DNA from: a virus
Length of the DNA stretch: 64,000 nucleotides
Strand: one strand, 5' to 3'
IMG/VR virus record: IMGVR_UViG_3300008110_010000
Location: 8,199-72,198 of that record
The notes under the pieces are model-generated. The model saw only the letters and a program-made list of their open reading frames with translations. It did no database searches and was not told the origin of the DNA. This document shows positions 7,873 through 30,405 of the stretch, piece after piece. Position 1 is the stretch's first letter. Every line of letters begins with the position of its first letter. The translations under genes were made by a program, and so were the position numbers.

Positions 7873-7878
7873 TAATAT

Positions 7879-8817: not shown

Positions 8818-8918
8818 AGCGTTAGTTCTTTTAATATGTATTCTGATAATATAATATGGAATATCTCACCATAATGAAGATCTTCAACTTTTCCTTGGTG
8901 TCTCCAAAGACCCAAAGA

Positions 8919-10527: not shown

Positions 10528-11284
10528 TTATATACTGTCCAGTTTCGTTTGGGTGATGATCGTTAACTAATTCTTCCCAAAATTTTGTATCATAATTTTT
10601 ATATCTGTCAGAATATCTTAAGCATTCATTTGATGTAAACCTCTGAGCGTCGATATTAAATTCATCATCATCTAGCGGAAAGTAAATAATTCTGCTTGGA
10701 TGAGTAATTGTTTTAATGACATTTTCTTTCCTTTTTTGCGTGGAATTTACATCTTTAGGATGTATAGGGTTTAAAAACCAATATTTAACTGTCGCACCTA
10801 TTTTATTTTCCAAATAATCAAAAACAGGAAGTACGTTTTTAAATCCAAGAATTAATAATTCAATTCTAAAATCTAAAACGAAATCTACGTATTTTTTCAT
10901 TTTTTCTTCATCATAAAATTTTTCACTCCTGAAATAATCAATCTGATGCCAATCAAAATCTATCAATACGTCATTTATTTCAAATATGTCTTTACTAGAC
11001 CACGATTCTCTTACGTGGTTTTCGTTAACAAAAGGTACAGGGAACCTATCTGGGTATGTAAACTCGAAAACCACTAAATCCCCCTTCTTTATTTTTTCCA
11101 TCTGCCTGAACAGCTTTACCGTAGATTCAAAATTGGATTGACCACTAAACCCGTTATTTACAAAATTGAATCCAATTTTTTCGGCTAATATTTCTGGCCA
11201 AAATTTCAAGCCGTATTCTTTTTCGTGATGTGGAGAATGAGTCCAACTACATCCGTAAGCCCATAGTGTGTTTTTTGTAATCAT
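10499..11284 (-). CDS. hypothetical protein (possible distant SGNH-like)
   Basis: N-terminal LWAYGCSWTHS is reminiscent of the GDS(W) motif, but weak. Confidence 0.3.
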   Translation of the reverse strand: MITKNTLWAYGCSWTHSPHHEKEYGLKFWPEILAEKIGFNFVNNGFSGQSNFESTVKLFRQMEKIKKGDLVVFEFTYPDRFPVPFVNENHVRESWSSKDIFEINDVLIDFDWHQIDYFRSEKFYDEEKMKKYVDFVLDFRIELLILGFKNVLPVFDYLENKIGATVKYWFLNPIHPKDVNSTQKRKENVIKTITHPSRIIYFPLDDDEFNIDAQRFTSNECLRYSDRYKNYDTKFWEELVNDHHPNETGQYIIAENILLSL

Positions 11285-13178
11285 CTAGAATTTCTATAGA
11301 TTTGAACCATAACATTTTACCAAATTTTCCATCGTGTAATGGAGACATATTTAGAAATATCAGGCCTGTTATAAATTTAATCTTATCGAGATCGAATCCG
11401 TTTTTCCTGATCCATCCCTCATATTCAGATCTAAACTTAATTAGATTCTTTGAGATATGATATTCATATTTAATAGAATAAGATCCTTCAAAGTATGTGA
11501 TATTACTGTCATCTTTCATTAAATTGTATGGGATTATTAATCCGCCATAAAACTTAGAAAGATCGTAATAAATGTCTCCAGATTCTACATTTTCTCCAAA
11601 GCAGTCTCTCCAGTCTATGTAATAGTATTCGCCATCTTCCGATAATATCATATTATCAAAGTGGAGATCACCATGAAAATTAGAATAGAAAGGATTCTCG
11701 TAAAGACAGTCAAATATTTTTTCATCAGATAATATAAGATCCAAAGATGGTCTTTTAATTTCGTTTATTTCATGATCAGAAACAAAATAACTTTCTCCAT
11801 ATTTAGCAAGAAATGATTCTAGTCTTTTATGGGTTTTGTCGACATAAAACTTTTTAAGATCTTCTATGTTTGCAGGGATTGTCTCCTTGGTGAGGAATTC
11901 CAGCTTTGTCAAAAACCTACTAAAATCCCCCAGTTCCCCGCGATCGTATAAAGTTTTACCTTCTATCCAATCGTAATAAAGAAAATTCCCAGCAACATTG
12001 AAATTTGGGGGAACCAAGCCTCTTAAAATTTCTCCTCTAATTTTCCTTCTTTCTAGCAGATCTCTATCTTGTGTAAACTTTAAAAATTTACCCCCGTCCT
12101 TATAGGTTATTTCTCCTATGTCTTTTTTCAAAGATAGCGGTTTATCATTAAAGTACTGTCTAGCTTTATCTAGATCGTCTAGATTTCCGGTATCTAGCCA
12201 TTTTAACTTTTTTGCCTTTAGACTTGTATAGACTTGAGGTGATTCAAATGCAGAAACTAATTCACCGCTTTTAATATTTTCTTTAAGCTCTTTCCAGAAA
12301 GTGGAGTAATCTGATATTCCTCCGAAACCAACAAATGCTAGATCGTATCCGTCAGTACTTTTGTTAACGAAAGATGTTATATTTTCTTTATCGTCCATCT
12401 TCACCGTGGAGTATTTTTCTGGATATGATGTTGAATGAACCCCTAACCAGTTACCGTTTATTCCAGGGATCGGAGAATCTATGATACAATCTCCCATTAT
12501 AAAATAAAAAGGTCTTTGAAGATGCTCGGAGCACAACAGAGCGCTTGTACCTGGCCCAGTTTGCGAAGGATCATAATTCTCGACATTTACGAATGTAAAT
12601 TTGTGATCTGGATAAACTAGATTACAATACTCTTTGACGGAATCTCCCTTGTATCCAATAGCTATGATAAAGTCATATTCCTTAGGGAATTTTTCTATTA
12701 TGTAGGATATGATAGCCCGATTGTTTACCGGCAATAAAGTTTTATTTATGTTGTCTGTTAATTTTTTTAGACGGCTACCTAAGCCTGCACATAATATTAA
12801 AACCGCGGGAGTTTTATGCTCGCTTTCGATCTTTCCATCAGGTCTATTTGTATCATCCTCCACTCGTATTACATCGTCGACCTCCGGGGTAGAAACTTCT
12901 TGCATTATCAGGTCGGTCAAAGCAATTACCCTGTGTTTTTTAGGAGGAATTACGTTATAGTATTGACCTGGGCCGTACACCTCCTTAACAATTTCACCTT
13001 GATCATTCTCCAGCCAAATTTCTGCTTGTCCCGATATGATATAGTTAGTTTCTTTTTTAAAGTTGTGATACTGTAAAGATGTTTTATATCCCTCGTTTAT
13101 ATAGATTCTTTTATAACAATAAGAATCATTAAGTTCTATCCATTCTTCTTTACCCCACGGTTTATAAATTGTTTTCAT
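11247..13178 (-). CDS. trifunctional fusion: cupin (PMI-type) domain + sugar-phosphate nucleotidyltransferase + APH/choline-kinase-like kinase
   Basis: N-terminal KPWGKEEWI ... QYHNFKKETNYIISGQAEIW (cupin_2). Middle LILCAGLGSRLKKLT ... LLPV (G-x-G-x-R NTP-transferase motif). C-terminal HGDLHFDNMIL ... IDWRDC (Brenner H-G-D-x-x-x-x-N and D-x-x kinase motifs of APH/ChoK family). Confidence 0.6.
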   Translation of the reverse strand: MKTIYKPWGKEEWIELNDSYCYKRIYINEGYKTSLQYHNFKKETNYIISGQAEIWLENDQGEIVKEVYGPGQYYNVIPPKKHRVIALTDLIMQEVSTPEVDDVIRVEDDTNRPDGKIESEHKTPAVLILCAGLGSRLKKLTDNINKTLLPVNNRAIISYIIEKFPKEYDFIIAIGYKGDSVKEYCNLVYPDHKFTFVNVENYDPSQTGPGTSALLCSEHLQRPFYFIMGDCIIDSPIPGINGNWLGVHSTSYPEKYSTVKMDDKENITSFVNKSTDGYDLAFVGFGGISDYSTFWKELKENIKSGELVSAFESPQVYTSLKAKKLKWLDTGNLDDLDKARQYFNDKPLSLKKDIGEITYKDGGKFLKFTQDRDLLERRKIRGEILRGLVPPNFNVAGNFLYYDWIEGKTLYDRGELGDFSRFLTKLEFLTKETIPANIEDLKKFYVDKTHKRLESFLAKYGESYFVSDHEINEIKRPSLDLILSDEKIFDCLYENPFYSNFHGDLHFDNMILSEDGEYYYIDWRDCFGENVESGDIYYDLSKFYGGLIIPYNLMKDDSNITYFEGSYSIKYEYHISKNLIKFRSEYEGWIRKNGFDLDKIKFITGLIFLNMSPLHDGKFGKMLWFKSIEILDDYKKHTMGLRM

Positions 13179-13893
13179 GATATTGATCTTGATTATTTCC
13201 CCAATCCATCGTTTTTTGGAATATCGTATTTATAGATATCTCTTCTTTATTTAACTGTCTAGAGTTAGCCCTTACAGTAACGACAGATGTTCTTGGAATT
13301 TTTTTAATTTTTATTTCACTTAGTAAAATGTGTTTGGCTAAGTGATGATGCATGGAGCCGTTACATTCGTTTCCGTCTAATCTTTCCGGTATATTATCAA
13401 TTAATTTTTCGATTAGATCATATTTACCAAAGAAAAAAATATCCTGTATGAATAATTCTTCCCCGTTATTTCTAATCTCTTCTAACCCGTATACAGATCC
13501 CTCTCTTAAATCCTCATCCGAATTTATATTCTCAAAATCGAAATTAAAATCAAAATAATTATCAGGTCTTGTTAGCATGATATAATCATATTTTATACCG
13601 CTTTTTTTGATCATTTTAAGCCCGGATTTCCAGTGGAATATCATCTTTTCTGGATTGGTTAATTCAGAAAACACATCATCTAATATTAAAACATTTGCGT
13701 CTTTAATATGATCTAATATTCTTTTTTCTGTGACTTCCTCGTCGATTATGATGTCTAGTTTTTTATTTTTTTGCTTGGATCTAGACCATGTTGAAAAATA
13801 AACCTCGCAATCAAACTTGCTTAAAAAATTCCAAGAAGTAACAGCAATATCAAATTCCCTATACATCCCATAAACCAAAATTGCAATTTTCAT
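13162..13893 (-). CDS. hypothetical protein, paralogous to the repeated module of 14546..16327
   Basis: Starts MKIAILVYGMYREF, like the two MKIAIC-SGQ-R modules in the next-but-one gene. Confidence 0.35.
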   Translation of the reverse strand: MKIAILVYGMYREFDIAVTSWNFLSKFDCEVYFSTWSRSKQKNKKLDIIIDEEVTEKRILDHIKDANVLILDDVFSELTNPEKMIFHWKSGLKMIKKSGIKYDYIMLTRPDNYFDFNFDFENINSDEDLREGSVYGLEEIRNNGEELFIQDIFFFGKYDLIEKLIDNIPERLDGNECNGSMHHHLAKHILLSEIKIKKIPRTSVVTVRANSRQLNKEEISINTIFQKTMDWGNNQDQYHENNL

Positions 13894-14549
13894 ATGATTT
13901 TTACCTTTGATTTTATTTCATTTTCTATGTATTGGCAAAAATCCCTATGACCCTTGAATGACCAGTGATGGTTTACTATTTCTCCCTTTGTTGCATTGAC
14001 TATTAATTCAAATTTTTCCCAGAGACTTTCTACATCCCAGATATAGCAGAGATTTACTCCTCTATCTTTTAGTAGTCTTTCTCTCAAAAAATTCAGTCTA
14101 AAATCGTGTCTGATAGAATAAGCTTTCTGTGTTGCAAATTCTATTGAAAACATTTTTATGGTCTCTATCTGCTCGTTGGTAAATAATCCAACGGTTGCAT
14201 CTTCAAACCATTTTTGTACGTCTTTTTCCCCTCCCCTATAAACTATAGATTTGACTTCCGGTGAATCATTTTCTTTCGGAAAGTCAAATCTGTGTGACCA
14301 GGTTTTACCTATTATTACTATATCGTCCTTAGAAATATCCTCCCAGTTTTTTATTATAGTATCAATAATAGTATCGTTAGACACCCCAGGTAAACCTTTA
14401 TTTTGTAGAGCATAGTTTATTTTTCTGGATAATAATTTATTCCAAGAAAGGTCATCATCTTTTAACCTATATCTTTGATAATATAGATCATGATCTAATG
14501 TGCCGTCTCCGTATGTAAAAGAACATCCAAATGTCCAGATTTTATTCAT
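13890..14549 (-). CDS. SGNH/GDSL-like hydrolase
   Basis: MNKIWTFGCSFTYGDG block I motif. Confidence 0.4.
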   Translation of the reverse strand: MNKIWTFGCSFTYGDGTLDHDLYYQRYRLKDDDLSWNKLLSRKINYALQNKGLPGVSNDTIIDTIIKNWEDISKDDIVIIGKTWSHRFDFPKENDSPEVKSIVYRGGEKDVQKWFEDATVGLFTNEQIETIKMFSIEFATQKAYSIRHDFRLNFLRERLLKDRGVNLCYIWDVESLWEKFELIVNATKGEIVNHHWSFKGHRDFCQYIENEIKSKVKII

Positions 14550-16327
14550 ATTAATATTTTATCTATGACCTCTGTTTCACCTCCGGGGAACACCGCTATA
14601 TCTTCGAACAGAACCTCATTGTCCCCAAGTCCCCCTAATTTTAATTGTTTTTTGAGAGTTATAAAATTCCTAAATTTGCATATCTGAAAATTAAGAGGGG
14701 TAGTTTGATTCTTTACTCCAATCTCTTTTAAATAGTGATAAAAAACTAACTCAGGTATCAGGTGGTTTCTGCTTTCTTCAAACGTTCTAATGTCTATACT
14801 TGGTAGGTGCCTATAAAAATCGCAAATTTTATCGAACGTTAAAGAATCTGAAAACCAAAACACATCACCAATTGCAAAATGAGGGTAAACATCAATTTTT
14901 CTATTATGTATAGAAAATATAGTATTTGGTTTAACAGTTGATAAAATTTCGATTAAATCAAAAACCTGTCCCCATGGAACATATTGATCGTACCGTAATC
15001 TGATACAAACATCATATTCGAAATTATTTTCTATCTCGTATTGTCTTTTCAATTCGCACGATCTCATCACTGCATAAAACTGGTTTGCACACCAAGTAAT
15101 GGGCGGACCTTCATTTTCTGGATATCTCTCCTCTGCAATGTCAATAACATCCTGGTTTACTCTTTGATTTTTTTCAAAATCCTCAATTAGATATTTTTTC
15201 GGTTTGTATATTTTAATTATTTCATTTAATTTATCATCGTCGTACGGAGTTACTCTATTATTGGCGGTTACATCCAATATTGGTCTGGATTCGCTTTCAA
15301 AATTCCAAGCATGGCAGAAAAAGTCGACAGTGCTATTAGGATCACTTTCAACTTTATTTTTTAGCTTTATTATGTTGTGGTAGCATTTTTCATAAGTTCT
15401 GAATTGACCACTTAAGCAGATAGCAATTTTCATAGTTCTTAATTTTTTTAACACATTGGGTGAAAACCCGGTCTTTTCAAAAATTTCTTTTTTGAATTTC
15501 AAAAGTAGATTGTATCCGATGTGTTTGACGTTTGATAATTTTTGAAACTCGTGATTATATAATATTCTATTGATTTCAACACACTCCCTAAAATTATCCA
15601 CTGGATGATAACCCAGGGAGAATTCTCTAAAGATTGTCCACTTATACTCCATTTCATTTAGAAACTCTATAGATTCTATATTATTTTCCTTGAGATAATC
15701 ATCAAAAAACACGTGATAAAGATCTTTGCTTTTATCTGTTGTGATAATATAGTTATGAAACAATGAAGCCTTATCCATAACTGAGGAATTTGACATAAAT
15801 ACCACATCATGCAGCATTCTGCTTGAAGGATTCTCAAATTCTGTTATTGTGTCGACTAAAAAAATACCATTTTTGATAAAAGAAATGTTGTCGTGAATTA
15901 TATTTTTTAATTTAATCGACGGATCATATATGCAATCCATTCTCATTTTTATTACAACGTCGTATTGAAAATTGTTTTCCTCTTCGTATTTCTTTTTTAA
16001 ATTAACACTTTCATACCAGCTGTACCACATCGGGGAATTTGATGTCCCCTTTTTTAGAGACAAATCGTAATAGTCCTCGTAAATATCAACCTTAGTTTTT
16101 TTTGGTTTGTATATGTTATTAATTTTTATGTAATCATTTAGTTCTACCTTCTTGATATGGGTATATTCATGTTCGGGTCTTTCGTCCCCAAAAAATCTTT
16201 TACCGTCATTAATATCCCACGTGTGTATAAAATAGTCGGCCTCACATCCCTCAATAAAATTGAGTATGTTGATGGAAGAATCAACTGCCCTTCTTATTTG
16301 ACCACTAAAGCAAATCGCAATTTTCAT
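14546..16327 (-). CDS. protein with internally duplicated ~300-aa module of unknown function (possible sugar-modifying enzyme)
   Basis: Two tandem modules begin MKIAICFSGQIRR and MKIAICLSGQFRT. The conserved ...WDINDGKR.../...AWNFESESR... pattern indicates an intragenic duplication. Confidence 0.4.
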   Translation of the reverse strand: MKIAICFSGQIRRAVDSSINILNFIEGCEADYFIHTWDINDGKRFFGDERPEHEYTHIKKVELNDYIKINNIYKPKKTKVDIYEDYYDLSLKKGTSNSPMWYSWYESVNLKKKYEEENNFQYDVVIKMRMDCIYDPSIKLKNIIHDNISFIKNGIFLVDTITEFENPSSRMLHDVVFMSNSSVMDKASLFHNYIITTDKSKDLYHVFFDDYLKENNIESIEFLNEMEYKWTIFREFSLGYHPVDNFRECVEINRILYNHEFQKLSNVKHIGYNLLLKFKKEIFEKTGFSPNVLKKLRTMKIAICLSGQFRTYEKCYHNIIKLKNKVESDPNSTVDFFCHAWNFESESRPILDVTANNRVTPYDDDKLNEIIKIYKPKKYLIEDFEKNQRVNQDVIDIAEERYPENEGPPITWCANQFYAVMRSCELKRQYEIENNFEYDVCIRLRYDQYVPWGQVFDLIEILSTVKPNTIFSIHNRKIDVYPHFAIGDVFWFSDSLTFDKICDFYRHLPSIDIRTFEESRNHLIPELVFYHYLKEIGVKNQTTPLNFQICKFRNFITLKKQLKLGGLGDNEVLFEDIAVFPGGETEVIDKILI

Positions 16328-17474
16328 ACTCTAATAAATAATCTCCAATGTCTAGATTTCTTATAGAATCCATCATTTTTAAAAAATTGGAAGATTTTTT
16401 TTCTAAATTCCCATCTTTTTTATTTTCTATCTCGTACATAAATCTATTTCTGTCGCCATCTCCCAATTTGTAGATTTGCTCCATTGCAAGATCCTTCAGC
16501 TTTGGGTGTAAACAAGATATGTGTAAGTAATTGGGGCTATAGACAAAATTATATTCAATTTGTTCACCGGAAAAAAACTCTCTAAAATTCCACACATTAC
16601 AAACATTCAAAACACTTATTGTCTGGGTTATAGTAATTTGTAATTTTTCTTTTTTCAGTTTTAAAAAATTATCATACACAACTTCCCATTTTGAAGGATA
16701 TCTTATATAATCATTCCTATTTCCAACGTCGTCTATAGAAAGCTGTAGTTTTACCTCCCGAAATTCTCTTAACAGCTCTAAAAACCTGTCTGGTAAATTT
16801 GTACAGTTTATGTTATATACCAGCTTTATATTTTTTGATTTGTCTAGAGAAATCAACTTCTCCAAAAAGTAAAAATGCTCCTTTATCAACGTTGGTTCTC
16901 CCCCGTTGATGTAAATTTCCTCCAATTCGCTAGAATGCTTTAATAATTCATCATACCATTCTTTGTTTTTAAACCAATCGCTTTTATAATCTTCATAGTT
17001 GTAATGATCGTCTCCGAACGTGGACGGAAATCTTTTAACATCTTCTATCCACTTGCTACTTGACATCGGGTTGCATGTTAAACACTTTATGTTACAAACA
17101 TTACCGAGTCTTAATTCGATAAACTTAAGATGTATATTTGGGAGTTTTTCGCTTATACTTATTTTATTGAGATATTTAGCATTTTCTTCATCTCTTTTAC
17201 TCTTGAATCCGTTTTCTTCTATCCTGTAACAACCTATACATTCGATAGGTTTCTCATTATTCATCATCTTTCTTCTAATTTCTGTGAAAGAATCAGAATT
17301 CATAATGTCTTCTATGCTATCCTTACCTAGGGTTAATACTCTATTTTTAGTTTTGGAGAAACAAACCCCATTTTCAAAATTAGCAATACAACAAGGTGAC
17401 ACCAGCCCGTTAGGATGAGTTGCTAAATGCGTAAACGGTAACGAACATATAGTTTTTAAATTTGTGTCCACCAT
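16305..17474 (-). CDS. radical SAM enzyme (paralog 1)
   Basis: CNIKCLTC (C-x3-C-x2-C) radical SAM cluster motif. N-terminal Cys-rich CSLPFTHLATHP ... PCC region is shared with paralogs. Confidence 0.6.
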   Translation of the reverse strand: MVDTNLKTICSLPFTHLATHPNGLVSPCCIANFENGVCFSKTKNRVLTLGKDSIEDIMNSDSFTEIRRKMMNNEKPIECIGCYRIEENGFKSKRDEENAKYLNKISISEKLPNIHLKFIELRLGNVCNIKCLTCNPMSSSKWIEDVKRFPSTFGDDHYNYEDYKSDWFKNKEWYDELLKHSSELEEIYINGGEPTLIKEHFYFLEKLISLDKSKNIKLVYNINCTNLPDRFLELLREFREVKLQLSIDDVGNRNDYIRYPSKWEVVYDNFLKLKKEKLQITITQTISVLNVCNVWNFREFFSGEQIEYNFVYSPNYLHISCLHPKLKDLAMEQIYKLGDGDRNRFMYEIENKKDGNLEKKSSNFLKMMDSIRNLDIGDYLLEYENCDLL

Positions 17475-18793
17475 TCTAATAATTTTTTGTTTTGTCCTAG
17501 AATATTCTCAAATGTTAATGATCCATTTAAACCGTCCTTTCTGAACTCTGCTATTCTTATCATGTTTTCTTTCCCTCTCTTTCTGCCCTCTTTATAATCT
17601 GGATACGATTCTTCGAAAGTTTTTTTGGTTTTTAAATCTTCTAAAGCCTCCACATAAATTTGGGTTTTCGATGTAACCCTTGGCTTAATGTAATCTAGGG
17701 TATCGTCTATAATTTCTTCGAGGATGGACCTAGGTATTGACAATGGAGACATAAGAACAGAGGAATCGAAAGAAAAAGTTGTTTTTATATAGGTTACTAC
17801 ATTTAATTCCACTGCACGATCGAATAATTCTTTTATAGACAGTAGGCCTGGAAGAGTTATTGTAAGATCAAAAACCATTCCATGATCGCCGTATAAATCG
17901 TTTAGAAAAAGACCTCCCTTAAAATTATCTAGCCACTTTTCCCACACTATTCCAGTTCTGATAAATTCAACAATTTTTCCAGTTCCATCTATACTTGCAC
18001 ACAGATTTACCCTTTTAAAATGAGGCAGAAAATCATATAGATTCATTCCTTTATATGATACCCTGCTTAAATTTGTGTTGTATCTTATTATAACATTCTT
18101 GGATTGATTATTATCAACCAAATACTTCATGATATCCCAATGAATGTCCCACATCAATGGTTCACCACCTACCCAATATATTTCTTCTATTCTATTCTCT
18201 TTCACTGCTTCCCAAAGTTCGTTTTCAGTAACTTCTTTCTGGAATTTTTTAAATTTTTCTTGATTTTCTTTTTTATAAAATGGCTCGGTTTCTAAATTAA
18301 TGTTGCCCATTATTTTTCTTTCCGCCTCCCACTGTGAACTTAACAAGTCGCCACACATTCTACATTTAAAATTACACAGATTACTTATCCGATAGTCATA
18401 TGATATTGGTTTCATGTGAGTGTAACCATCATCTTCCGTTTTTTCGAATATCTCGTCTATTTTGTGGGGAAAAAGTGTATTGGTGAAATAACCTTTGTAT
18501 GTGTAAAGATTTAGAATTTGATCGTTACAAACCTGACATTGTGGAATTGACTCTCCGGACATTATTCTTTTTCTAATGTTTTTCATATAATCACTATTCC
18601 AATGATCCTCCAGCGAAACTGGTTTAAAATGTGAGTTATCGTCAGGATTTTCAGAATCTATGTACTGTTTAATATAGTTTGCCTTTTCCCTACTTGCACA
18701 ACATAATCTTCTTTCCCCCTGTGGGGAAAGATATGTGTGTGTCCACGGTGCTGTACAAAAAAATTCATTTCCATCCGAAGGTTTTATTCTCAT
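17456..18793 (-). CDS. radical SAM enzyme (paralog 2)
   Basis: CNFKCRMC motif. N-terminal FCTAPWTHTYLSPQGERRLCC is similar to paralog 1. Confidence 0.6.
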   Translation of the reverse strand: MRIKPSDGNEFFCTAPWTHTYLSPQGERRLCCASREKANYIKQYIDSENPDDNSHFKPVSLEDHWNSDYMKNIRKRIMSGESIPQCQVCNDQILNLYTYKGYFTNTLFPHKIDEIFEKTEDDGYTHMKPISYDYRISNLCNFKCRMCGDLLSSQWEAERKIMGNINLETEPFYKKENQEKFKKFQKEVTENELWEAVKENRIEEIYWVGGEPLMWDIHWDIMKYLVDNNQSKNVIIRYNTNLSRVSYKGMNLYDFLPHFKRVNLCASIDGTGKIVEFIRTGIVWEKWLDNFKGGLFLNDLYGDHGMVFDLTITLPGLLSIKELFDRAVELNVVTYIKTTFSFDSSVLMSPLSIPRSILEEIIDDTLDYIKPRVTSKTQIYVEALEDLKTKKTFEESYPDYKEGRKRGKENMIRIAEFRKDGLNGSLTFENILGQNKKLLEWWTQI

Positions 18794-19710
18794 ATTAATC
18801 TGCTAGATTTTATTATATTCTGCGTATAGAGATCACCCCTTCCGTTTGAAATCCATTCATACAACAATTCTGCCCATAATTTGTGCGATTTGGGTGTTGG
18901 ATGTACACCATATAATCTTTCCTCCAACGGTATCTGTTTTATATAATTTAAAAATGAATTTGATGGCTTGTCTTTCATCAGAAAATTGGATTCTGGTACA
19001 TGGTCCCATTTTAATTTACTCATACGGTATAGATCCTCCCCCCAAATACCTTCAACATATTTGAAAGAATCTATCCATTTCATAATATTTAAGTCTATAA
19101 ATTTTCTTTCCATTTTATAGATATGATGTTCCTCAGGTAAAGCATTGAACAAATAACATGGAATTCCGTACTTATCGCAAAACGTACGTATTTCAAAATT
19201 GTAGTTTATGAAATCGTACGCTCCTTCATAGTCATTTTGAACAACCGATAAATACCACTTAAAGAATTCCCTCATTCCATATTCCTCTTTATTGAAATCT
19301 CCGTTACTGTTTAGAGTTTTTCGGTATATTTTATTATGAGTATTGAAAAAAAATTCCTTTCTAACTATAGAGGTCCATCCAATGACTACAATGATGTCAT
19401 CTGGAGTTTTATTAGGGACAATGTAGTTTTCAAGTAGCCAGTTTAAAAGTGTTTCAAAAATCCATTTGTTACCTACTGCAGGCTTGGCTAAATTTATAAC
19501 CTCTTTTGCCCCTATTAATTCTTTTAAATATGTTGGCCAAATTCTTTCAATCCTATATTGATCGTTTTTTGCGTCAGTATCTTCTTCTATTATCCCGTTA
19601 AATTTATTTATTTGGTGAGGCTTTGATGGAGCTTCCAAAAACTGTGGGTCCACAATTTCACTACCATATGTAAAGCTATCTCCGCACACAACTAATTTCA
19701 TTTCACTCAT
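18790..19710 (-). CDS. SGNH/GDSL-like hydrolase
   Basis: LVVCGDSFTYGSE block I motif. Confidence 0.45.
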   Translation of the reverse strand: MSEMKLVVCGDSFTYGSEIVDPQFLEAPSKPHQINKFNGIIEEDTDAKNDQYRIERIWPTYLKELIGAKEVINLAKPAVGNKWIFETLLNWLLENYIVPNKTPDDIIVVIGWTSIVRKEFFFNTHNKIYRKTLNSNGDFNKEEYGMREFFKWYLSVVQNDYEGAYDFINYNFEIRTFCDKYGIPCYLFNALPEEHHIYKMERKFIDLNIMKWIDSFKYVEGIWGEDLYRMSKLKWDHVPESNFLMKDKPSNSFLNYIKQIPLEERLYGVHPTPKSHKLWAELLYEWISNGRGDLYTQNIIKSSRLI

Positions 19711-21262
19711 CTTTAATATATTTTAGCATTTCATCCTGGATATCGGGTTCGATGTAATCCTGAGATCCTGGATTGCTATTTTGAGGATCTAATACCCATC
19801 CCTCTTTTTTTGCGGTTTCTATCACATCGTCGACATATTTATTAGATTTAGCATCGTCACCATCAACCATTCCTATTTCAAGGGGCTCTATTTTTGTTTC
19901 AGGTATCGAATCGAACCATTCTGATAACATCGGGAATGATTCTTTAAAATTCCTATTTCTTCTTATGTCATATTGAATATAAAAAGATTTAAAATCTCTT
20001 TCTCTAGATTCAATAGATGATGTAAATCTATGCCCAGTTTCAACTTCTCTTATGTAAGCAATCATTCTGATTATTCCATCTCTCTCAATATCTAGTAAAT
20101 CAGAAATATTCTTACTTAGCCATCCCTCTATATGATTTGCTCGTTCAATTCTTATGTCTTGCGGTAGTGTAACTATAGACTGAAAGCTTGGAAACCTTAA
20201 TATATTAAAAGAACAAATCGGGAAATGCTTGCCAAATTTTTTCTTCATTTTAATTACCTCATCCATAAATTCAGTAAGACTAAACAGACACAAAGAATTT
20301 ATAGTCATCATTACGTTTAGGGATGCCAATTTACCTTCTTCACAAACCCTGTACATATTTTTAAGCCATTTTTCCCAGATTAATCCATATCTGATATACT
20401 CAGCTTGCTTCCCTGTTGCTTCGCATGATGTGTAGAGATGAAACGTTTTAAAGCTGTGTGTCGACTTAATAAGTTCTTCCAAGAGTTCGTCTTTCTGTCC
20501 TAGATTGGAGTTAACTGCAAATTCCACACTACAATCCTTATTGGTTTCCCACCATTTCATCAGTTTCCAGAAATCTTGAGACATTGTTGGTTCACCTCCT
20601 GTTACTCTCAATTCTCTTAAAGAATATTGAAGCTCTCCCTCCCACCATTTCCAAAATGCTTCGATGTATGGATTTCCGATATTTTTTTTACCGTATGGGA
20701 GAGAGTGCGAACCATCATGCTGGAAAGCAGCTGCACCATCACTTACTAAATTCTGATATGGGCCGAACTTTTTTATATCATTTTGCCAGGTTGTAGAAAA
20801 TGAAGAATTGCAGTAAGAGCATGCAAAGTTACAATTGGGATCGAATGCAATTTCTAATGTTTTTAGATCCACGTCTTGCTGCCATCCGAGTTTGTTCTTG
20901 GCATCTTTTAGTTCTTCATCGGTGTAAATAACAGATTTATAAACCCGATCAGAAACTTTGTCGCTTCCCATGTCCTCTATTTTCCAGCAATACTCGCATT
21001 CTTTAGGTCTTTCTCCCTCCAGCATTTGTTTTCTGACCAATTTTTTATAGCTAGTGTTGTGTATTGCTTTATAACTTTGCGCAACTTCTGCGAGGGGTAT
21101 TTTATGAGCTGGGGGGTGATGGCAACTAGCTGTAGTTCCGTTTCCTAACCAGATTGTTGCGTTATACCATTTAGCACCACAGAAGGAAGGGGAAACAGAG
21201 TTTATCGCTCTGTCCCTATATTCTTGGTAGCTCTCCTCTCCTTTTTTTGCAAATATTCCCAT
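19703..21262 (-). CDS. radical SAM enzyme (paralog 3)
   Basis: CNFACSYC motif. N-terminal FCGAKW ... SCHHPPAHKIPL is shared with paralog 4. Confidence 0.6.
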   Translation of the reverse strand: MGIFAKKGEESYQEYRDRAINSVSPSFCGAKWYNATIWLGNGTTASCHHPPAHKIPLAEVAQSYKAIHNTSYKKLVRKQMLEGERPKECEYCWKIEDMGSDKVSDRVYKSVIYTDEELKDAKNKLGWQQDVDLKTLEIAFDPNCNFACSYCNSSFSTTWQNDIKKFGPYQNLVSDGAAAFQHDGSHSLPYGKKNIGNPYIEAFWKWWEGELQYSLRELRVTGGEPTMSQDFWKLMKWWETNKDCSVEFAVNSNLGQKDELLEELIKSTHSFKTFHLYTSCEATGKQAEYIRYGLIWEKWLKNMYRVCEEGKLASLNVMMTINSLCLFSLTEFMDEVIKMKKKFGKHFPICSFNILRFPSFQSIVTLPQDIRIERANHIEGWLSKNISDLLDIERDGIIRMIAYIREVETGHRFTSSIESRERDFKSFYIQYDIRRNRNFKESFPMLSEWFDSIPETKIEPLEIGMVDGDDAKSNKYVDDVIETAKKEGWVLDPQNSNPGSQDYIEPDIQDEMLKYIKDE

Positions 21263-21263
21263 G

Positions 21264-21917
21264 TTAAATTATTTTGGCGCTAGGCGCTATTTTATTGAAT
21301 TCGTTGATCGAATGGCTAGAGTATTCTGGATCTTCAAATATAATTCCATGATTTCCGTTCCCACTTTTATCGAATGTTTTAAATTTTGAATTTCTTTCAA
21401 AATCAAAAAACGAGTACAGCTTTTTTGATTTCTCGTCAAAGGAATCGACGATTTCATCGAAAACTGCAATTTTATAAATATCCCCTTTGAACCAGCATTC
21501 ATAAGATCCACTGTATGGATTTATAGATCCTATAAAAATATTCTTGTCTGAATAAGATTCAATTGGACCGGTTTCTTTTTCACCTTTTAAAATTCCATCG
21601 ATGTATATTTTAACAGAATCTGAAACTGTCACCATGACTTCCATTCTTTTATGTATATCATCAACAGGTATCCAGATATCGTTATATTGATAGGGTTTAG
21701 TGTACCAAGAGAATTTAACACCATTTGGTTTCTGTAAAAATATTCCCATATGGTATCCTATCCTTCCTACAATCAACGACTCATCCTCTGCAAACTCAGA
21801 GAGTTGAAAATCCCCATAAAGAGAAAAATTCCCCTCCAGATTTTCAAAATTCTTTGTGTTCGTATTATTTTTAGAATTGTTTGGGATGTAATATGCTTTC
21901 TTTTCGAATCTCATCAA
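21264..21917 (-). CDS. hypothetical protein
   Basis: 217-aa ORF with no motif recognised. Confidence 0.3.
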   Translation of the reverse strand: MMRFEKKAYYIPNNSKNNTNTKNFENLEGNFSLYGDFQLSEFAEDESLIVGRIGYHMGIFLQKPNGVKFSWYTKPYQYNDIWIPVDDIHKRMEVMVTVSDSVKIYIDGILKGEKETGPIESYSDKNIFIGSINPYSGSYECWFKGDIYKIAVFDEIVDSFDEKSKKLYSFFDFERNSKFKTFDKSGNGNHGIIFEDPEYSSHSINEFNKIAPSAKII

Positions 21918-23296
21918 ATTATTTTTTTATAAAATTCCTCAAATTCTGGAAAAACCTTCAAAAAATTGGTGCCTCTTCTTTTATCGTGATTGTCTACAAA
22001 AATTCGGAAATCCCTCCTGTTCTGTAATAAGGTCTCTTCAGGTTCTTCCGTTACCATCCAATCATGAATTCTATTTAACTTATTGATTTCGATGTCGGTA
22101 TATCCAAATCCATCAAGACCAACTCTTATTTGTTCGTAGAAGTCCATTAGCTGAGCTTGCTCTTTTACTACTGCAGACCATTCCTTATCTAATATTTTCA
22201 CTGTCTGGTGTGGAGGCCACCTTAAATAGGACGAGTCTAACATAATAGAGGAGCCATAGTATCTGTGAGGGTTGTGATATTCTTCCTTAAGCTTTACCAC
22301 ATTTTCTATTAACTTTTCATAATTAGGAACGGAAAGTGCGTTATATGTGGACATTATTATTACGGTCAGAGGCTCAATTTCTTTCAATAGAAAATTAACT
22401 CTATCCCACCATTGGTTGAAGACCAAACCATGTCTAATGTATTCAGCTTGTTCTCCCCAGGTATCTGCACTGGTAAATAGTATCACCTCGTTTACCCTGT
22501 TCTCGTCTATCATTCTTTTTAATTTTTCTACCATTAGATTAAAAAGCTTATCTGGTGCTCCTAAATTCGTATTGAGAGAAAAATTTAAATTTCTGTTTGG
22601 GTTTTTTTCATCCAAGATATAATCAAAAACCTTAAAAGTGTCTTTAGACAGAAGAGGTTCCCCTCCCGTTATTCTAAAAGTATGAAGATCTCTGTATAAA
22701 TCAGGCCACCATTTCCAGAAAGCCTCAACGTATGGGTTCTCCTGATTATGCGGTCTTGGGATCATGTTCAGATCCTTCAAATATTCTAAATTGTTAAATC
22801 TAAAGCTGGTAGGATATGGTCCATGCTGCTCTATTTCTTGAACCCATTGGGAAGAGAACGACGGTCCACAATACGAGCATTTAAAATTACAGTGATTACT
22901 AAAAGCTACCTCAACATACTTAGGATTGTAATTTTCTTTCCACCCTAAATCTTTTATTTCATTAAAATATGGGGCAGACCAGGGTTCAGAAGATTTATAA
23001 ATTCTATCGGAAAATGCATTTGATGTATCTTCTATATTCCAGCAATAATCGCATTCATCTGGTCTTTTACCATGAAGCATTTTTCTTCTCTGCTGCTTTT
23101 TATAAACTGTATTATGTAGAGCAGATGGGTTTTTTTCTAACTCTGATAGTGGGATATGATGCGTGCCTGGATGGTGACACGAATGTGTTTGTCCCATTTG
23201 TAAATGAAGTGTTACTTGAGTCCATTTTGCTAAACAAAAGCCACATCCAACATCGTTTAATTTATTTCTAGTTTTGTCGAAAAATTCGTTTAGCAT
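21914..23296 (-). CDS. radical SAM enzyme (paralog 4)
   Basis: CNFKCSYC motif. N-terminal FCLAKW ... SCHHPGTHHIPL is clearly paralogous to 19703..21262. Confidence 0.6.
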   Translation of the reverse strand: MLNEFFDKTRNKLNDVGCGFCLAKWTQVTLHLQMGQTHSCHHPGTHHIPLSELEKNPSALHNTVYKKQQRRKMLHGKRPDECDYCWNIEDTSNAFSDRIYKSSEPWSAPYFNEIKDLGWKENYNPKYVEVAFSNHCNFKCSYCGPSFSSQWVQEIEQHGPYPTSFRFNNLEYLKDLNMIPRPHNQENPYVEAFWKWWPDLYRDLHTFRITGGEPLLSKDTFKVFDYILDEKNPNRNLNFSLNTNLGAPDKLFNLMVEKLKRMIDENRVNEVILFTSADTWGEQAEYIRHGLVFNQWWDRVNFLLKEIEPLTVIIMSTYNALSVPNYEKLIENVVKLKEEYHNPHRYYGSSIMLDSSYLRWPPHQTVKILDKEWSAVVKEQAQLMDFYEQIRVGLDGFGYTDIEINKLNRIHDWMVTEEPEETLLQNRRDFRIFVDNHDKRRGTNFLKVFPEFEEFYKKII

Positions 23297-24603
23297 TATA
23301 GTAATCTTTTTTTAATTATCGGATTGAGACTCTCCAAACAAATTAGATCGTTTGGTAAATTTCTGTGTTTTGAATTATTTGCAATCATTAAATCGTGTCT
23401 TTCTTTATGATTTACCCATGGATTATCTCCAAATAATCTTATATGTTCATTTATACTCGATATAAATATCTTCGATTCAAAGTCGTCGTTATCTAAAATA
23501 AACTCTGGAAGATGATACGAATTAACAAACGGAACAATGTAATCATAATTTCTCCTGAGAATTGATTCAAAGCTATTTTTTATATTCGCTCCGTCAAGTA
23601 ATATACATCCATTCTTGACGTAGAATATTATATTCTTTTTACTATCCTTTAAAATATTTAAAATTATTTGGGATTCTAAATCTTCCGATGATGTGTCCAA
23701 GAAAACATATTCATATTCAAAATGATCAGTAATCATGCTTCTGAGCGTCTCCTTGCTGTTTTTTTCGATCACAAAATATCTAAGATTTTTAAATTTATTT
23801 TTATAAAAGTTTAGGGTAGTTTCCAAAACCCCTCCATAATTTTCTTCAGTTCCATCTACCGAAACAAAAGCACAGACCTCAGTAGAGATGCACGGTATGT
23901 CTTCATATGGTGGATAATGATTGTCTCTAAAATTTACTAGCTGTTTATAAAGAGAATTTGATATGGTTGAAGGAAATTCGCAGTTTGATAACGCAAGGCC
24001 AAAAACAGCTCCCTCTCCTCTTAAATCATCATCAGCCTCCTTCGCTACCTTTTTTCTAAGCATCGAATAAAATTCATAGGTTTCAAACAATTTGTCTATC
24101 TTTTCTTCGTCAATACCCTCGAAATTAAAATACATTAAATCTTCCCATGGAGTAACTGTATTTCTAAATTCAACATTATTTTTTATCAGCTCATCTTTAA
24201 ATTTTCCAAGTTTTGGATTCGTTTCTAATAAGGCTTTGAAATGTATGCTTGTAAATCTGTTGTATGAAAATCCTGGATTAAAATTCTTAGAAATAATATC
24301 ATTTATGAATTCTTCAGAATTTATCAATATCAGATCAGAATCCATATAAAGTATTTTATTATACCCCCTTTTTCTTACCTGGTTAATGAATATAAATTTG
24401 CTATGAAAATCAAAGGTTGTGGAAAAATCGTGCTTTATTATTTCAACCCCTTCCATGTCTTTGAATTCTGACACATTATCGGTGTAAACAAATATTTTAA
24501 AAGATCCACTATCAGTGAAATTCTTTATTAAAAATTTGCAGCAGGTATAATAATACTCAGTATTAGAAGCAATTGTCGCTATTGCTATTTTATTTTCCAT
24601 CAT
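23296..24603 (-). CDS. hypothetical protein
   Basis: 435-aa ORF in the glycosylation array. No motif recognised. Confidence 0.35.
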   Translation of the reverse strand: MMENKIAIATIASNTEYYYTCCKFLIKNFTDSGSFKIFVYTDNVSEFKDMEGVEIIKHDFSTTFDFHSKFIFINQVRKRGYNKILYMDSDLILINSEEFINDIISKNFNPGFSYNRFTSIHFKALLETNPKLGKFKDELIKNNVEFRNTVTPWEDLMYFNFEGIDEEKIDKLFETYEFYSMLRKKVAKEADDDLRGEGAVFGLALSNCEFPSTISNSLYKQLVNFRDNHYPPYEDIPCISTEVCAFVSVDGTEENYGGVLETTLNFYKNKFKNLRYFVIEKNSKETLRSMITDHFEYEYVFLDTSSEDLESQIILNILKDSKKNIIFYVKNGCILLDGANIKNSFESILRRNYDYIVPFVNSYHLPEFILDNDDFESKIFISSINEHIRLFGDNPWVNHKERHDLMIANNSKHRNLPNDLICLESLNPIIKKRLL

Positions 24604-26046
24604 TTATGCTTTGCAATTAATCAGAAGGGTATTGTTGAATACCTCTTTAGTAGAGACTAACTCGTACTTCATACTGTTGAATCCCTCACTTTTATAGTTT
24701 ATACATTTCCTTTGCATTTCAGTTACGAACCTTTTTTCATTTCTTGCTGTTGTTTCCCCCTTTGCCCACTTATTATTTACTAGCCCTTCGTCAATGTGTG
24801 GTAAACACTCGAAAGATCCTTCTCTCCTATAAGGAATTGGCATGTCGCTAACCTCGATGGAATCTTCAACGATTTCTAAATTATAAGCCTTAGCTTTAAT
24901 TCCACTCATTACGTCTTCGATTTCTCCATTTTCTATCAAATCAAATTTAAAATGCAGAACTGGCTTATGTTTTAAATCGTGAAATTTAGTAACATCTCCT
25001 GGAATTTTTACTGCCTTATCAAAAATCATTAATTCTGCAATTTCACCTCTAAAAAATAATGGATTTTCCTCGTCGCCGTTATATCCCACGATAGATTTTT
25101 CTTTATCCCTATACTGAAATAAATCATTATTTATTATTGTAGATTTATTTTCTTTGATTCCTTTTTCGTTAGATCTTGCTAGTTCGTCATTTAGAAAAAA
25201 ATTAAAGTGACCACTTGAAGAATCATAAGATGTTGTTACCCAGGACCAAACACCATCATCCCTCTTGATCCAATTATAGATCTGGGATGATGAAAAATCT
25301 GAAATCATGCTAGTAACAGCTCTGGAGTTGTTAAAAGATATGCAGTACGGACTATATGATTGCTTTCGGAAAACCGGAAATTCTATGAATTTTTTGTCAT
25401 CCGTTCCTATTAGCCAATCTTTATATTTTTCAGGTTGTTGTTCTGCTTTAAATAAAGCACATACCGTATGATCTGATCCCAGTATTTTGTTTATGGATTT
25501 TATCCATGGGATTTCAACATATGAGTTGTCTCCATTAAATCTTGAAAATTTTCTTTTTTTATATTTTTTATAAATCCTTTTTTCAACATATCCTTCGAAA
25601 TAACATCGATAAAAAAGGTCGTCATCTTCCATACCCCAATCCCAATAATCATTAGAATATCCGTTAGTTTTTATAACTTGATCCTTAGTAAATAGAATTA
25701 CCCCACCGAAGTATTGTTCATAATTTAGTTTGAAATCGTACTTCGAAAGTTTTGTTGCTATATGAATTGGATATTTTTCCGGATATGAATAGTCACAATC
25801 ATCGGAGAATGGCACCATATCAACGTCATGCCATGCAATATAATCACATCCATCATCGAAGGCAAACTTGGCTGCTATGTTTTTCATTAGTCCCCTATTA
25901 AACAGCTTATTATCCACCTGATGGGCCACATAAAATTTATGATCTATTCCACGATTTTTTAGATACTCCCCCAGGTCTTCAGTTAGCTTCTGTAAGTGAT
26001 CGAATCTATTTCTGTAAGGTATGCAAATTCCCAGTTTATGACTCAT
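24604..26046 (-). CDS. GT7-family beta-1,4-galactosyltransferase-like glycosyltransferase with C-terminal extension
   Basis: LGICIPYRNRFDHL, FNRGLMKNIA, WHDVDMVPF, YFGGVILFTKDQVIKTNGYSNDYWDWGMEDDDLF: the full set of B4GALT/GT7 signature blocks. Confidence 0.65.
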   Translation of the reverse strand: MSHKLGICIPYRNRFDHLQKLTEDLGEYLKNRGIDHKFYVAHQVDNKLFNRGLMKNIAAKFAFDDGCDYIAWHDVDMVPFSDDCDYSYPEKYPIHIATKLSKYDFKLNYEQYFGGVILFTKDQVIKTNGYSNDYWDWGMEDDDLFYRCYFEGYVEKRIYKKYKKRKFSRFNGDNSYVEIPWIKSINKILGSDHTVCALFKAEQQPEKYKDWLIGTDDKKFIEFPVFRKQSYSPYCISFNNSRAVTSMISDFSSSQIYNWIKRDDGVWSWVTTSYDSSSGHFNFFLNDELARSNEKGIKENKSTIINNDLFQYRDKEKSIVGYNGDEENPLFFRGEIAELMIFDKAVKIPGDVTKFHDLKHKPVLHFKFDLIENGEIEDVMSGIKAKAYNLEIVEDSIEVSDMPIPYRREGSFECLPHIDEGLVNNKWAKGETTARNEKRFVTEMQRKCINYKSEGFNSMKYELVSTKEVFNNTLLINCKA

Positions 26047-27449
26047 ATTCCTACGTTAATTTCTGTTATATTTCCCTCTCTTTTTCTTCCGTGATCTGTG
26101 TACTTTAGATCCGATAATCCGTCTCCAAATAAAAGATTGCTGTTATTTCTTACCTCGTTATAGAATCTTAATTGATTCCATCTAGTTGCTTTATCCTTCC
26201 ATCTATTTTCGAAGAAACCATTTTGCTCATGTTTCATGGATTTAAAGATAGAATCCCTTCTGATCGGAAGGTCTATTTTTTTAAACCAAGGACCTTCCAT
26301 ATCAACAATTTCACATTTGAAAATACTAGCATCGTTTCCGTTTCCTGAAAGATCTACTAACTTATAATTTTCTATGTGCTCTGCATCATAGTGACAAAGA
26401 ATGGATCCGGATTTTTTATATTCCGAAAAGTCGTTTGTTGCTGAAACAGATTTAACTTCATTTTCACTTAAAATTCCTTCTAAGACTACCAAAGAATCTA
26501 TGTACCCCTTGAAAAAATTAGGATCTCCATTTCTTTTAGGATTTCCTGCACCGATAAAGAAATACTTTTCGTCTGAATAATCCTTTAATTCTCCCTCCCA
26601 ATTTGTTTTTCCTATATGTTCTCCGTCTTGATAGAAATTTATTTCTCTCAACGATTGATTTAATGTGATACAAATATTTGTTTGATAATTAGTAGTTATT
26701 TCTGTGTTTATGTATGATGCTTTTTCTTCGGAGTTGAATGTAACAAAATTGTATCTCTTGAATGAATTATAGGAAATTGCAGTGTCATACCCCGGAATGC
26801 TAAAAACCGTATAAACATCAAGATCCTTCGTTGAATCATAAACCAATTCATCGGGGAAAAAAGATGCAAATAATGTTAGATCCTTGTCTATGCAAAAATT
26901 ATTTTTTGCTCTCACAAAAGAATCCTGTCCGTTAAATTTTAGTGATTTATGGAAATTTCTTGTTTTTTTGATGTAATAAGGCTCTGTGCCTATGCTCTTG
27001 TTTTTGCATCTTAGGAAAAGGTCATCATCTTCAAATCCCCATCCCCAATACTTATTTGAATATCCGTTTATCTTTTTGAAATCTTTAATCGGAAACATAG
27101 TGACCCCGCCGAAGTATTCGTCGAATGGCTTTGATCTTTCCCCCGAGTCCTCGTCCTCTATTAGAGTTGCAAGATGAACTGGATGATCACAGTAAGAATA
27201 ATCAACATCCAATGGCAGCAAATCAACATCATGAAAAACCACATAATCACATCTTAAGTTTCTGGCACACTTAAATCCTATATTTAATAGCATCCCTCGA
27301 TTAAATTGCTTACCGTCGTCTTGATTTACGATGATAATTTCATGTGGTATTTTTTCCTCGTTTAGATATTTTACTATCTCCTTGAGAAAAAAATAAAGAT
27401 GTTCCCCTCTGTGGCGGAAAGGAACTATGACTCCTAGTTTTTTATCCAT
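26043..27449 (-). CDS. GT7-family beta-1,4-galactosyltransferase-like glycosyltransferase (paralog)
   Basis: LGVIVPFRHRGEHL, FNRGMLLNIG, FHDVDLLPL, YFGGVTMF ... INGYSNKYWGWGFEDDDLF. Confidence 0.65.
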   Translation of the reverse strand: MDKKLGVIVPFRHRGEHLYFFLKEIVKYLNEEKIPHEIIIVNQDDGKQFNRGMLLNIGFKCARNLRCDYVVFHDVDLLPLDVDYSYCDHPVHLATLIEDEDSGERSKPFDEYFGGVTMFPIKDFKKINGYSNKYWGWGFEDDDLFLRCKNKSIGTEPYYIKKTRNFHKSLKFNGQDSFVRAKNNFCIDKDLTLFASFFPDELVYDSTKDLDVYTVFSIPGYDTAISYNSFKRYNFVTFNSEEKASYINTEITTNYQTNICITLNQSLREINFYQDGEHIGKTNWEGELKDYSDEKYFFIGAGNPKRNGDPNFFKGYIDSLVVLEGILSENEVKSVSATNDFSEYKKSGSILCHYDAEHIENYKLVDLSGNGNDASIFKCEIVDMEGPWFKKIDLPIRRDSIFKSMKHEQNGFFENRWKDKATRWNQLRFYNEVRNNSNLLFGDGLSDLKYTDHGRKREGNITEINVGI

Positions 27450-27651: not shown

Positions 27652-27652
27652 A

Positions 27653-29226: not shown

Positions 29227-29249
29227 CCTTACATTTTACCCTATTTTCT

Positions 29250-30404: not shown

Positions 30405-30405
30405 T

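Follow-up and report, generated by a model that had tools for sequence, protein, structure and literature searches.

The stretch analysed here, referred to as the window, is 64,000 nucleotides of a viral record from IMG/VR (IMGVR_UViG_3300008110_010000, positions 8,199 to 72,198). It includes four related genes for radical S-adenosylmethionine (SAM) proteins, rS1 to rS4, which lie among genes for glycosyltransferases (GT) and other carbohydrate-related proteins (Table 1). All four products score above the curated cutoff (170 bits) of the NCBIfam model NF033640 (N_Twi_rSAM, "twitch domain-containing radical SAM protein") with alignments spanning model positions ~1–398, and on their motifs and profile scores they are genuine radical SAM paralogs of one catalogued family. 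On balance, we favour the view that they are anciently diverged and probably non-redundant enzymes with an N-terminal twitch domain, located at the variable tailoring end of a huge-phage glycan operon.

The original prediction had described four open reading frames (ORFs) with CX3CX2C motifs and Cys-rich N-termini. These are present exactly where it placed them, all on the minus strand, and every motif was found as quoted. It also described three of the genes as adjacent and the fourth as following a 217-aa ORF, and this needs correction: only rS1 and rS2 abut, with a 19-nt overlap, while a 306-aa gene splits rS2 from rS3 and the 217-aa gene, which is LamG-like, sits between rS3 and rS4.

CX3CX2C occurs once per protein, starting at residue 127 in rS1, 140 in rS2, 144 in rS3 and 136 in rS4, and a GGEP motif is invariant among the four. 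Their N-terminal motifs read CSLPFTH...CC (rS1), CTAPWTH...CC (rS2), FCGAKW...SCHHP..HKIPL (rS3) and FCLAKW...SCHHP..HHIPL (rS4). A tetrad of N-terminal cysteines is shared by all four proteins (C10, C29, C79 and C82 in rS1) and is also invariant in an alignment of 81 homologues (C21, C40, C82 and C85 in rS4); a C-H-H-P...H motif is near-invariant. These cysteines all lie upstream of CX3CX2C, the arrangement that identifies an N-terminal twitch (half-SPASM) domain; Pfam places a SPASM domain at residues 10–82 of rS1 and 13–90 of rS2. Since rS4 has no cysteine after residue 143, the N-terminal four-Cys site is its sole auxiliary site, and rS2 has only C265 in that C-terminal stretch. The general Radical_SAM model (PF04055, gathering score 29.5 bits) gives 40.5 bits for rS1, 30.9 for rS2 and 31.9 for rS4, with rS3 slightly below at 28.2. 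All four proteins are full length and retain every catalytic and cluster-binding residue.

Pairwise identity among the four is only 24–33%. They form two subfamily pairs, rS3/rS4 (33% identical, E 8e-82) and rS1/rS2 (29%). Such values indicate old paralogs and, together with the existence of separate bacterial orthologs (at least 45% identical) of rS2, rS3 and rS4, rule out a recent local amplification. The housekeeping identities against which the original prediction was to be checked did not hold: equivalog models scored 13–29 bits against cutoffs of 131–284, the best being 29.3 of 284 for MoaA, 21.2 of 260 for QueE, 23.2 of 131 for NrdG2 and 23.1 of 180 for viperin.

The AlphaFold2 (AF2) model of rS4 (pLDDT 92.6) confirmed, at the level of predicted structure, a radical SAM fold for the rS3/rS4 subfamily, with residues 23–120 forming a beta-hairpin plus helices. 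In two methods, the best structural neighbour was the sugar-nucleoside decarboxylase BlsE; next came viperin and MoaA, whose substrates are nucleotides. Superposition on known twitch enzymes covers only ~211–219 of the 460 residues at 12–18% identity. The C-terminal helical domain (~140 residues) found no match in the structural comparison, and a PDB sequence profile search returned nothing better than MoaA at E 0.003. In BlsE, BtrN, AprD4 and MoaA the auxiliary domain is C-terminal, whereas in rS1–rS4 it is N-terminal; the window proteins have neither the C-terminal twitch nor the close structural similarity that would place them with BlsE, BtrN and AprD4.

From their motifs, rS1–rS4 should bind [4Fe-4S] clusters and cleave SAM reductively. 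In each, CX3CX2C would hold the [4Fe-4S] cluster that cleaves SAM, and the four N-terminal cysteines would be the ligands of a second [4Fe-4S] cluster. BtrN and anSME provide the precedent for reading auxiliary clusters by their number of Cys ligands. By analogy, four such ligands suggest a fully ligated electron-transfer cluster and not a substrate-binding one.

To examine the genomic context, every protein of the window was compared with the ORFs found at 84 viral loci (numbered with an L), of which 80 come from IMG/VR and four are copies of the window genome; each of these loci has an rS4-type gene by construction. This revealed a co-directional core in the order Methyltransf_24 (MT24), GT2x, a small protein, GT7b, GT7a and rS4. 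MT24 was found in 66 of the 84 loci, GT2x in 70 (always in the same position), GT7b in 78 and GT7a in 80, and at least 66 of the 80 IMG/VR loci have all of MT24, GT2x, GT7b, GT7a and rS4, at 40–60% amino acid identity. Stop and start codons of core genes overlap by a few bases, and in almost every related phage locus the rS4-type gene comes directly downstream of the GT7 genes. The carbohydrate context noted in the original prediction is therefore real and conserved in related viral loci. The 435-aa gene that separates GT7a from rS4 in the window is confined to L081, L082 and L084, all three of them copies of the window genome. Small ORFs (68–77 aa) occupy the place of the small protein in L087 (3842–4048) and, in two copies, in L088 (6667–6900 and 6915–7148). 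The 69-aa window protein has no cysteine, is probably helical and always lies just upstream of a GT7-LamG gene.

The number of family members per viral locus is variable: of the 84 loci, 55 have a single member and 20 a pair, while three members occur in one locus, four in seven (the window genome's copies among them) and six in one. A 321-kb contig has ~8 in a row. The closest distinct relative, L001, has the same gene order, with rS4 and rS3 81% and 83% identical to those of the window, and lacks both rS2 and rS1. Its SGNH gene directly abuts the DUF7796 gene. The rS2-rS1 pair is thus a 2.5-kb insertion or deletion. Homologues of the LamG-like gene (~215 aa) occur in 29 of the 84 loci, mostly directly after the rS4-type gene, and were also seen in L087 and L088; those of the 306-aa DUF6071/SGNH-like gene occur in 26 related loci. 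The downstream accessory genes (11247–16327) recur in 4–24 loci and keep the same order in L001, L058 and L075. In L088, three nucleoside diphosphate (NDP)-sugar epimerase/dehydratase genes adjoin the cassette. At 45% identity, the rS4 (T4-type) ortholog group is present in 87 of 89 viral or phage loci, and rS3 has orthologs in 20 loci from viruses and 21 from bacteria.

Among 50,697 deposited phage genomes, tblastn searches with rS4 and rS2 found close homologues only in the Ralstonia jumbo phage RsoM2USA, whose two members are gp202 and gp349, and GT7b had no match in the same records. One of the two, RsoM2USA_202, is an rS3 ortholog (52% identical) and is flanked by DUF6071/SGNH-like genes. 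All neighbours of the RsoM2USA family genes are annotated "hypothetical", and four neighbour proteins found no match in a PDB sequence search.

The family extends well beyond phages. A profile search of 1.84 billion representative proteins, clustered at 50% identity, retrieved 4,043 clusters at E 1e-30 or better, with many two- and three-module fusions, and more than 7,900 rS4-type homologues were found in metagenomes. In a scan of prokaryotes using one genome per species, 75 loci were identified, most of them in metagenome-assembled genomes (MAGs) of Bdellovibrionota (Bdellovibrionales, Bacteriovoracaceae, Pseudobdellovibrio, Oligoflexia), closed chromosomes included. Tandem arrays are present here too, with seven consecutive members in L108 and eight in L097, and two members scored from each gave 290–402 bits on NF033640. 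The L097 array lies beside obg, rplU and rsfS and is thus truly chromosomal. L108 is part of a closed 1.9-Mb Bdellovibrionales chromosome (OZ220490.1), a predatory bacterium with at least four family loci (L108, L110, L113 and L117); its seven-member run (1604–13196) is followed by a radical SAM gene of another family (best match STM4011), and a gap at 3118–3957 contains only short ORFs of 65 aa or less. Some records call for caution over the "bacterial" distribution. L164, a contig of the MAG "Candidatus Pelagibacter sp. TMED203", and L045 (IMGVR GVMAG-M-3300009001-5), a contig binned as a giant-virus MAG, carry the phage GT7a-rS4 cassette at 57–59% identity and are probably mis-binned phage DNA, as TMED bins may be also.

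Separate bacterial orthologs exist for rS2, rS3 and rS4 at a level of 45% identity or more; rS1 joins a bacterial cluster only at 35–40%. Orthologs of rS2 occur in 22 bacterial loci (45% clustering; best match 59%), and in 15 bacterial loci an rS2 ortholog is directly beside an rS1-like gene. Sets of the T4, T3 and T2 types recur in seven bacterial and four viral loci. One family member (P0148) is fused to a Glycos_transf_2 domain. An O-carbamoyltransferase of the NovN/GdmN/TobZ family (E 4e-88 to NovN) lies near 10 of the 75 bacterial loci, and GT2 genes are also recurrent.

Table 1. Genes and other features of the window discussed in the text.
Feature	Position	Strand	Basis
rS1, N-terminal-twitch radical SAM, 389 aa	16305-17474	minus	NF033640 314.9 bits
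rS2, N-terminal-twitch radical SAM, 445 aa	17456-18793	minus	NF033640 306.6 bits
rS3, N-terminal-twitch radical SAM, 519 aa	19703-21262	minus	NF033640 313.2 bits
rS4, N-terminal-twitch radical SAM, 460 aa	21914-23296	minus	NF033640 331.1 bits
Methyltransf_24 (MT24), SAM-dependent methyltransferase, first gene of core	28498-29226	minus	PF13578 E 2e-11
GT2x, GT-A-like, 282 aa	27653-28501	minus	Glyco_tranf_2_4 E 1e-4, below threshold
Small protein, 69 aa, between GT2x and GT7b	27442-27651	minus	Conserved in L087, L088
GT7b, second GT7-LamG glycosyltransferase	26043-27449	minus	Glyco_transf_7N/7C + Laminin_G_3 33 bits
GT7a, beta-1,4-galactosyltransferase-like with C-terminal LamG	24604-26046	minus	Glyco_transf_7N/7C
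435-aa gene between GT7a and rS4	23296-24603	minus	No Pfam match
LamG/ConA-like protein, 217 aa, between rS3 and rS4	21264-21917	minus	Laminin_G_3 E 1e-4, below gathering score
DUF6071/SGNH(GDSL)-like, 306 aa, between rS2 and rS3	18790-19710	minus	DUF6071 E 1.7e-12, N-terminal GDSF block
DUF7796 double-domain protein	14546-16327	minus	Pfam
SGNH-like gene	13890-14549	minus	Pfam scan
243-aa gene without family label	13162-13893	minus	
Cupin/NTP-transferase/APH-kinase fusion	11247-13178	minus	Pfam; predicted sugar-activating enzyme
IscA/HesB-type Fe-S assembly protein	41799-42122	plus	Fe-S_biosyn E 1e-19
GT2-radical SAM fusion, 727 aa	37312-39495	plus	Glycos_transf_2 + Radical_SAM
Ser/Thr-rich G-X-Y (collagen-like) tail fibre, 1543 aa, C-terminal S74 chaperone	42949-47580	plus	Pfam Collagen + Peptidase_S74

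The neighbours named in the original prediction, GT7 enzymes, a methyltransferase, 2-oxoglutarate (2OG) oxygenases, a nucleotidyltransferase/kinase and SGNH proteins, are all real, and the GT7s proved to be fused to LamG domains. In PDB searches, GT7a matched beta4GalT7 and beta4GalT1 at E 7e-33. The 306-aa DUF6071/SGNH-like protein is likely an esterase or acyltransferase. Several SGNH-like genes are present, most scoring below Pfam thresholds, and other carbohydrate-related or associated genes include Glf, GT8, a DegT fragment, GFO/IDH and ATP-grasp. The GT2-radical SAM fusion and the IscA-type gene that had been placed downstream are both present. The fusion was considered as a fifth paralog and rejected: with 40.6 bits on NF033640 it belongs to a different lineage. 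The IscA-type protein could possibly supply clusters to the window's five radical SAM enzymes. Within 13000–30500, a sigma-70 promoter scan performed no better than on shuffled sequences and a terminator scan gave no convincing internal terminator.

Several further genes accompany the glycan genes. Two 2OG-Fe(II) oxygenases of the prolyl-4-hydroxylase (P4H) type (PF13640; 2138–2803 and 2737–3228, minus strand) share a co-directional block with them; together with the G-X-Y fibre, they recall collagen hydroxylation and glycosylation by analogy. A small P-loop kinase (7879–8307, minus strand; APS_kinase-like, E 4e-11), whose homologues directly follow radical SAM arrays in L002–L004 and L126, may be a kinase acting on a sugar or nucleotide, or may belong to a sulfation step. 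The DegT/DnrJ-type aminotransferase fragment (36668–37315, plus strand; 215 aa, covering profile positions 24–98 of 360) adjoins the gene of the GT2-radical SAM fusion; it may be a truncated form or the remnant of a domain.

The region had been described as virus-like, and the evidence agrees. A transfer-messenger RNA (tmRNA) gene is present at 33604–33988 (plus strand; Rfam RF00023, 79.5 bits against a gathering score of 47), between a GMP-reductase-like gene and a second Methyltransf_24 gene; its tag peptide, as predicted by ARAGORN, ends in ...ADYAIAA. Several clusters contain 20–21 tRNA genes (35650–35724 and 48889–57899, plus strand), interleaved with glycosyltransferase, CHAP and glucosaminidase genes, the latter two encoding peptidoglycan hydrolases. 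A tRNA-Leu call at 51651–51733 straddles the junction of the ORFs 50727–51665 and 51666–52358, and one of these two gene starts or ends may therefore be mis-set. The tail fibre with its S74 chaperone also matches PHROG tail-fibre families. It is 25% Ser, 12% Thr, 22% Gly and 2.5% Pro; its four G-X-Y repeat blocks (42, 240, 129 and 387 aa) are collagen-like in register and not in composition, and local GC is 42–47% at this gene against ~32% elsewhere. The stretch 59627–62988 (minus strand) encodes a MoxR-type AAA ATPase and, after it, a DUF2201 metallopeptidase/VWA-like protein that is divided between two ORFs; the ATPase has its best phage match in an uncultured 462-kb phage (LR756500.1). Two adjacent SET-domain ORFs (4336–4770 and 4770–5243, minus strand) are unusual for a phage, and the match of the first is limited to the C-terminal part of that profile. 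A 624-aa protein (5408–7282, minus strand) has a C-terminal Hint/intein-like domain (AXH, Intein_splicing and PT-HINT matches), while its N-terminal 460 residues found no family match.

IMG/VR contains 529 relatives of rS4. Contigs of independent samples in ENA, JGI and Logan carry the identical rS4 protein, the longest of them being 75.5 kb, and contigs with rS4 homologues 66–76% identical reach 293–321 kb, beyond the 200 kb that marks the huge or jumbo class. Structural matches in BFVD that bear a virus name are all to tailed phages, mostly uncultured, together with the distant KVP40 and phi-pp2. Capsid, terminase and portal genes were not found within the 64-kb window. Most probably, the window is part of the genome of a large or huge tailed phage that has not been cultured. 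An origin from a nucleocytoplasmic large DNA virus, raised by the GVMAG contig L045, is unlikely because of the peptidoglycan hydrolases, the S74 fibre, the overlapping co-directional genes and the tailed-phage matches in BFVD. That Bdellovibrionota are enriched among cellular homologues is no more than suggestive of the host.

How these genes relate to known systems depends on which feature is compared. With the NF033640 family, rS1–rS4 share the N-terminal four-Cys domain, CX3CX2C and GGEP, and their alignments span almost the whole model; its description, as far as we found, includes neither tandem arrays nor a phage glycan operon as context. Known viral glycosylation systems, those for mycobacteriophage capsids and tails, Mimivirus and chloroviruses (PMC12619734), likewise have clusters of glycosyltransferase, methyltransferase and sugar-nucleotide genes near structural genes. 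The putative version in the window has its glycan cluster near a Ser/Thr-rich collagen-like fibre and P4H-like 2OG oxygenases. It also differs in that one to ~8 radical SAM paralogs are an integral and conserved part of the phage operon; we know of no radical SAM enzymes in the mycobacteriophage, Mimivirus and chlorovirus systems. Our literature search found no paper describing an MT24/GT2x/GT7/GT7/radical SAM phage operon, nor any on the NF033640 family, its N-terminal auxiliary domain or its arrays. The pathway had been called undescribed, which holds for function and arrays and not for the family, already catalogued and hence not a new kind of protein. Similarly, the proposed concentration of paralogs exists, but such arrays are unique neither to the window nor to viruses. 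What appears new is that a viral glycan operon includes radical SAM proteins of the twitch type as putative tailoring enzymes, with arrays and function undescribed in the literature found.

In the mechanism that we propose, a 5'-deoxyadenosyl radical would abstract hydrogen from a sugar carbon of a nucleotide-sugar or nascent glycan and the auxiliary cluster would then take up or give back an electron. This would leave a sugar that is oxidised, deoxy, epimerised or rearranged, and the glycosyltransferases, methyltransferase and SGNH enzymes would install and decorate it. A carbohydrate substrate is supported by the conserved core, with its GT7, GT2x and MT24 genes, by the NDP-sugar genes of L088, by the other carbohydrate genes of the window (the sugar kinase/nucleotidyltransferase fusion, Glf, GT8, the DegT fragment, GFO/IDH and ATP-grasp), by the GT2 fusion, by the O-carbamoyltransferase neighbours, by the pairing of rS3 with an SGNH gene and by the likeness to the BlsE fold. 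The acceptor might be a virion protein or the host envelope; the Ser/Thr-rich fibre is a speculative candidate. Distinct roles for the paralogs are indicated by their 24–33% identity, the separate bacterial orthologs of rS2, rS3 and rS4, their joint recurrence and the two- and three-module fusions. A multi-step pathway, as envisaged by the original prediction, is plausible in that old subfamilies travel together and fusions exist. The commoner modules are rS4, paired with the LamG-like gene, and rS3, paired with the SGNH gene; rS2 and rS1 form a two-gene unit that is gained or lost as a block and shared with Bdellovibrionota. Several observations weigh against this proposal. We found no known reaction for any family member and no paper naming the family; across 164 loci, no other locus has a collagen-like ORF less than 10 kb from its cassette; only 22 of the 75 bacterial loci have a glycosyltransferase or carbamoyltransferase within 8 kb in a low-sensitivity search; some bacterial arrays lie beside housekeeping genes; and other fusion partners, tetratricopeptide (TPR) repeats and a subtilase fragment, suit protein substrates better.

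These last fusions, and a structural similarity to SPASM maturases that is nearly equal, favour the alternative that the enzymes modify proteins or peptides, introducing thioether or C-C cross-links, epimerisation or formylglycine as SPASM/twitch maturases do. They would act on virion proteins, on the LamG partner or on a small precursor that has escaped recognition. We consider this unlikely. Maturases of peptides made on ribosomes and then modified post-translationally (RiPPs) such as SuiB and SkfB, and the other SPASM enzymes anSME and PqqE, are distinguished by a RiPP recognition element (RRE), a C-terminal seven-Cys motif and an adjacent precursor, whereas Pfam and NCBIfam scans of rS1–rS4 detected no RRE/PqqD domain, the C-terminal Cys-rich SPASM motif is missing and there is one auxiliary site only. 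A RiPP-like precursor was sought in the operon and in one bacterial array gap with nothing convincing, the 69-aa protein having no cysteine; the window has no precursor-like Cys/Ser/Thr-rich small ORF, leader peptidase or exporter. The strongest conserved neighbours, moreover, are glycosyltransferases. Action on nucleotides or DNA, either as hypermodification of phage DNA bases or sugars or as a viperin/MoaA-like conversion of nucleoside triphosphates against the host, is less probable still. It has a precedent in the thymidine-hypermodification clusters of phages, which also include radical SAM proteins (M6 gp53, SP10 gp185; PMC5889632). Those clusters lie near dUMP hydroxymethylase and DNA polymerase genes and include aGPT-Pplase and 5-HMUDK genes (PMC5889632), but neither dUMP hydroxymethylase, aGPT-Pplase nor 5-HMUDK is among the Pfam matches of the 64-kb window or in the conserved core. 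The partner genes thus differ, and the tblastn searches of the 50,697 phage records with rS4 and rS2 gave no match to the M6 or SP10 group at E 1e-5 or below. The low viperin and MoaA equivalog scores (13–29 bits against cutoffs of 180–284) also argue against this alternative, and nothing in the analysis supports DNA modification.

It is equally improbable that the copies are largely redundant, the products of duplication and horizontal shuffling that catalyse one reaction and are kept for dosage or are decaying. Copy number does range from one to ~8 between related phages, the nearest relative L001 has two fewer, and bacteria show recent tandem duplicates within a cluster (cluster c3, with 4–5 copies in L108 and L110). 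The window copies, however, share only 24–33% identity, have bacterial orthologs at 45% or more (rS2, rS3, rS4) or 35–40% (rS1), and are full length with catalytic and cluster residues intact; the rS2/rS1-like pair and the T4-T3-T2 sets recur in distant genomes.

Radical sugar tailoring by distinct paralogs therefore remains the reading that we prefer. Its extension to the whole family is a tentative and rather doubtful one: members would be interchangeable modules of a combinatorial radical sugar-editing system, one to ~8 paralogs being swapped between huge phages and Bdellovibrionota to make hypervariable and chemically unusual glycans on virions or cell envelopes.

This is a very large family for which we found no reaction, solved structure or paper. 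Hundreds of contigs from uncultured, mostly aquatic phages have the operon, with the radical SAM genes as an integral and not a stray part of it, and a paralog number that varies between close relatives is the pattern expected under diversifying pressure. The cultured Ralstonia phage RsoM2USA, with its two members, offers an immediate experimental handle. If proteins or nucleotides are the substrates instead, the chemistry would be equally new. If sugar editing is correct, it would represent a new radical carbohydrate chemistry and would help to explain the unusual surface glycans of large phages and predatory bacteria; and if the editing is combinatorial, it would add a new class of enzymology, based on an N-terminal auxiliary cluster, to the generation of surface diversity in conflicts between phage and host and between predator and prey.

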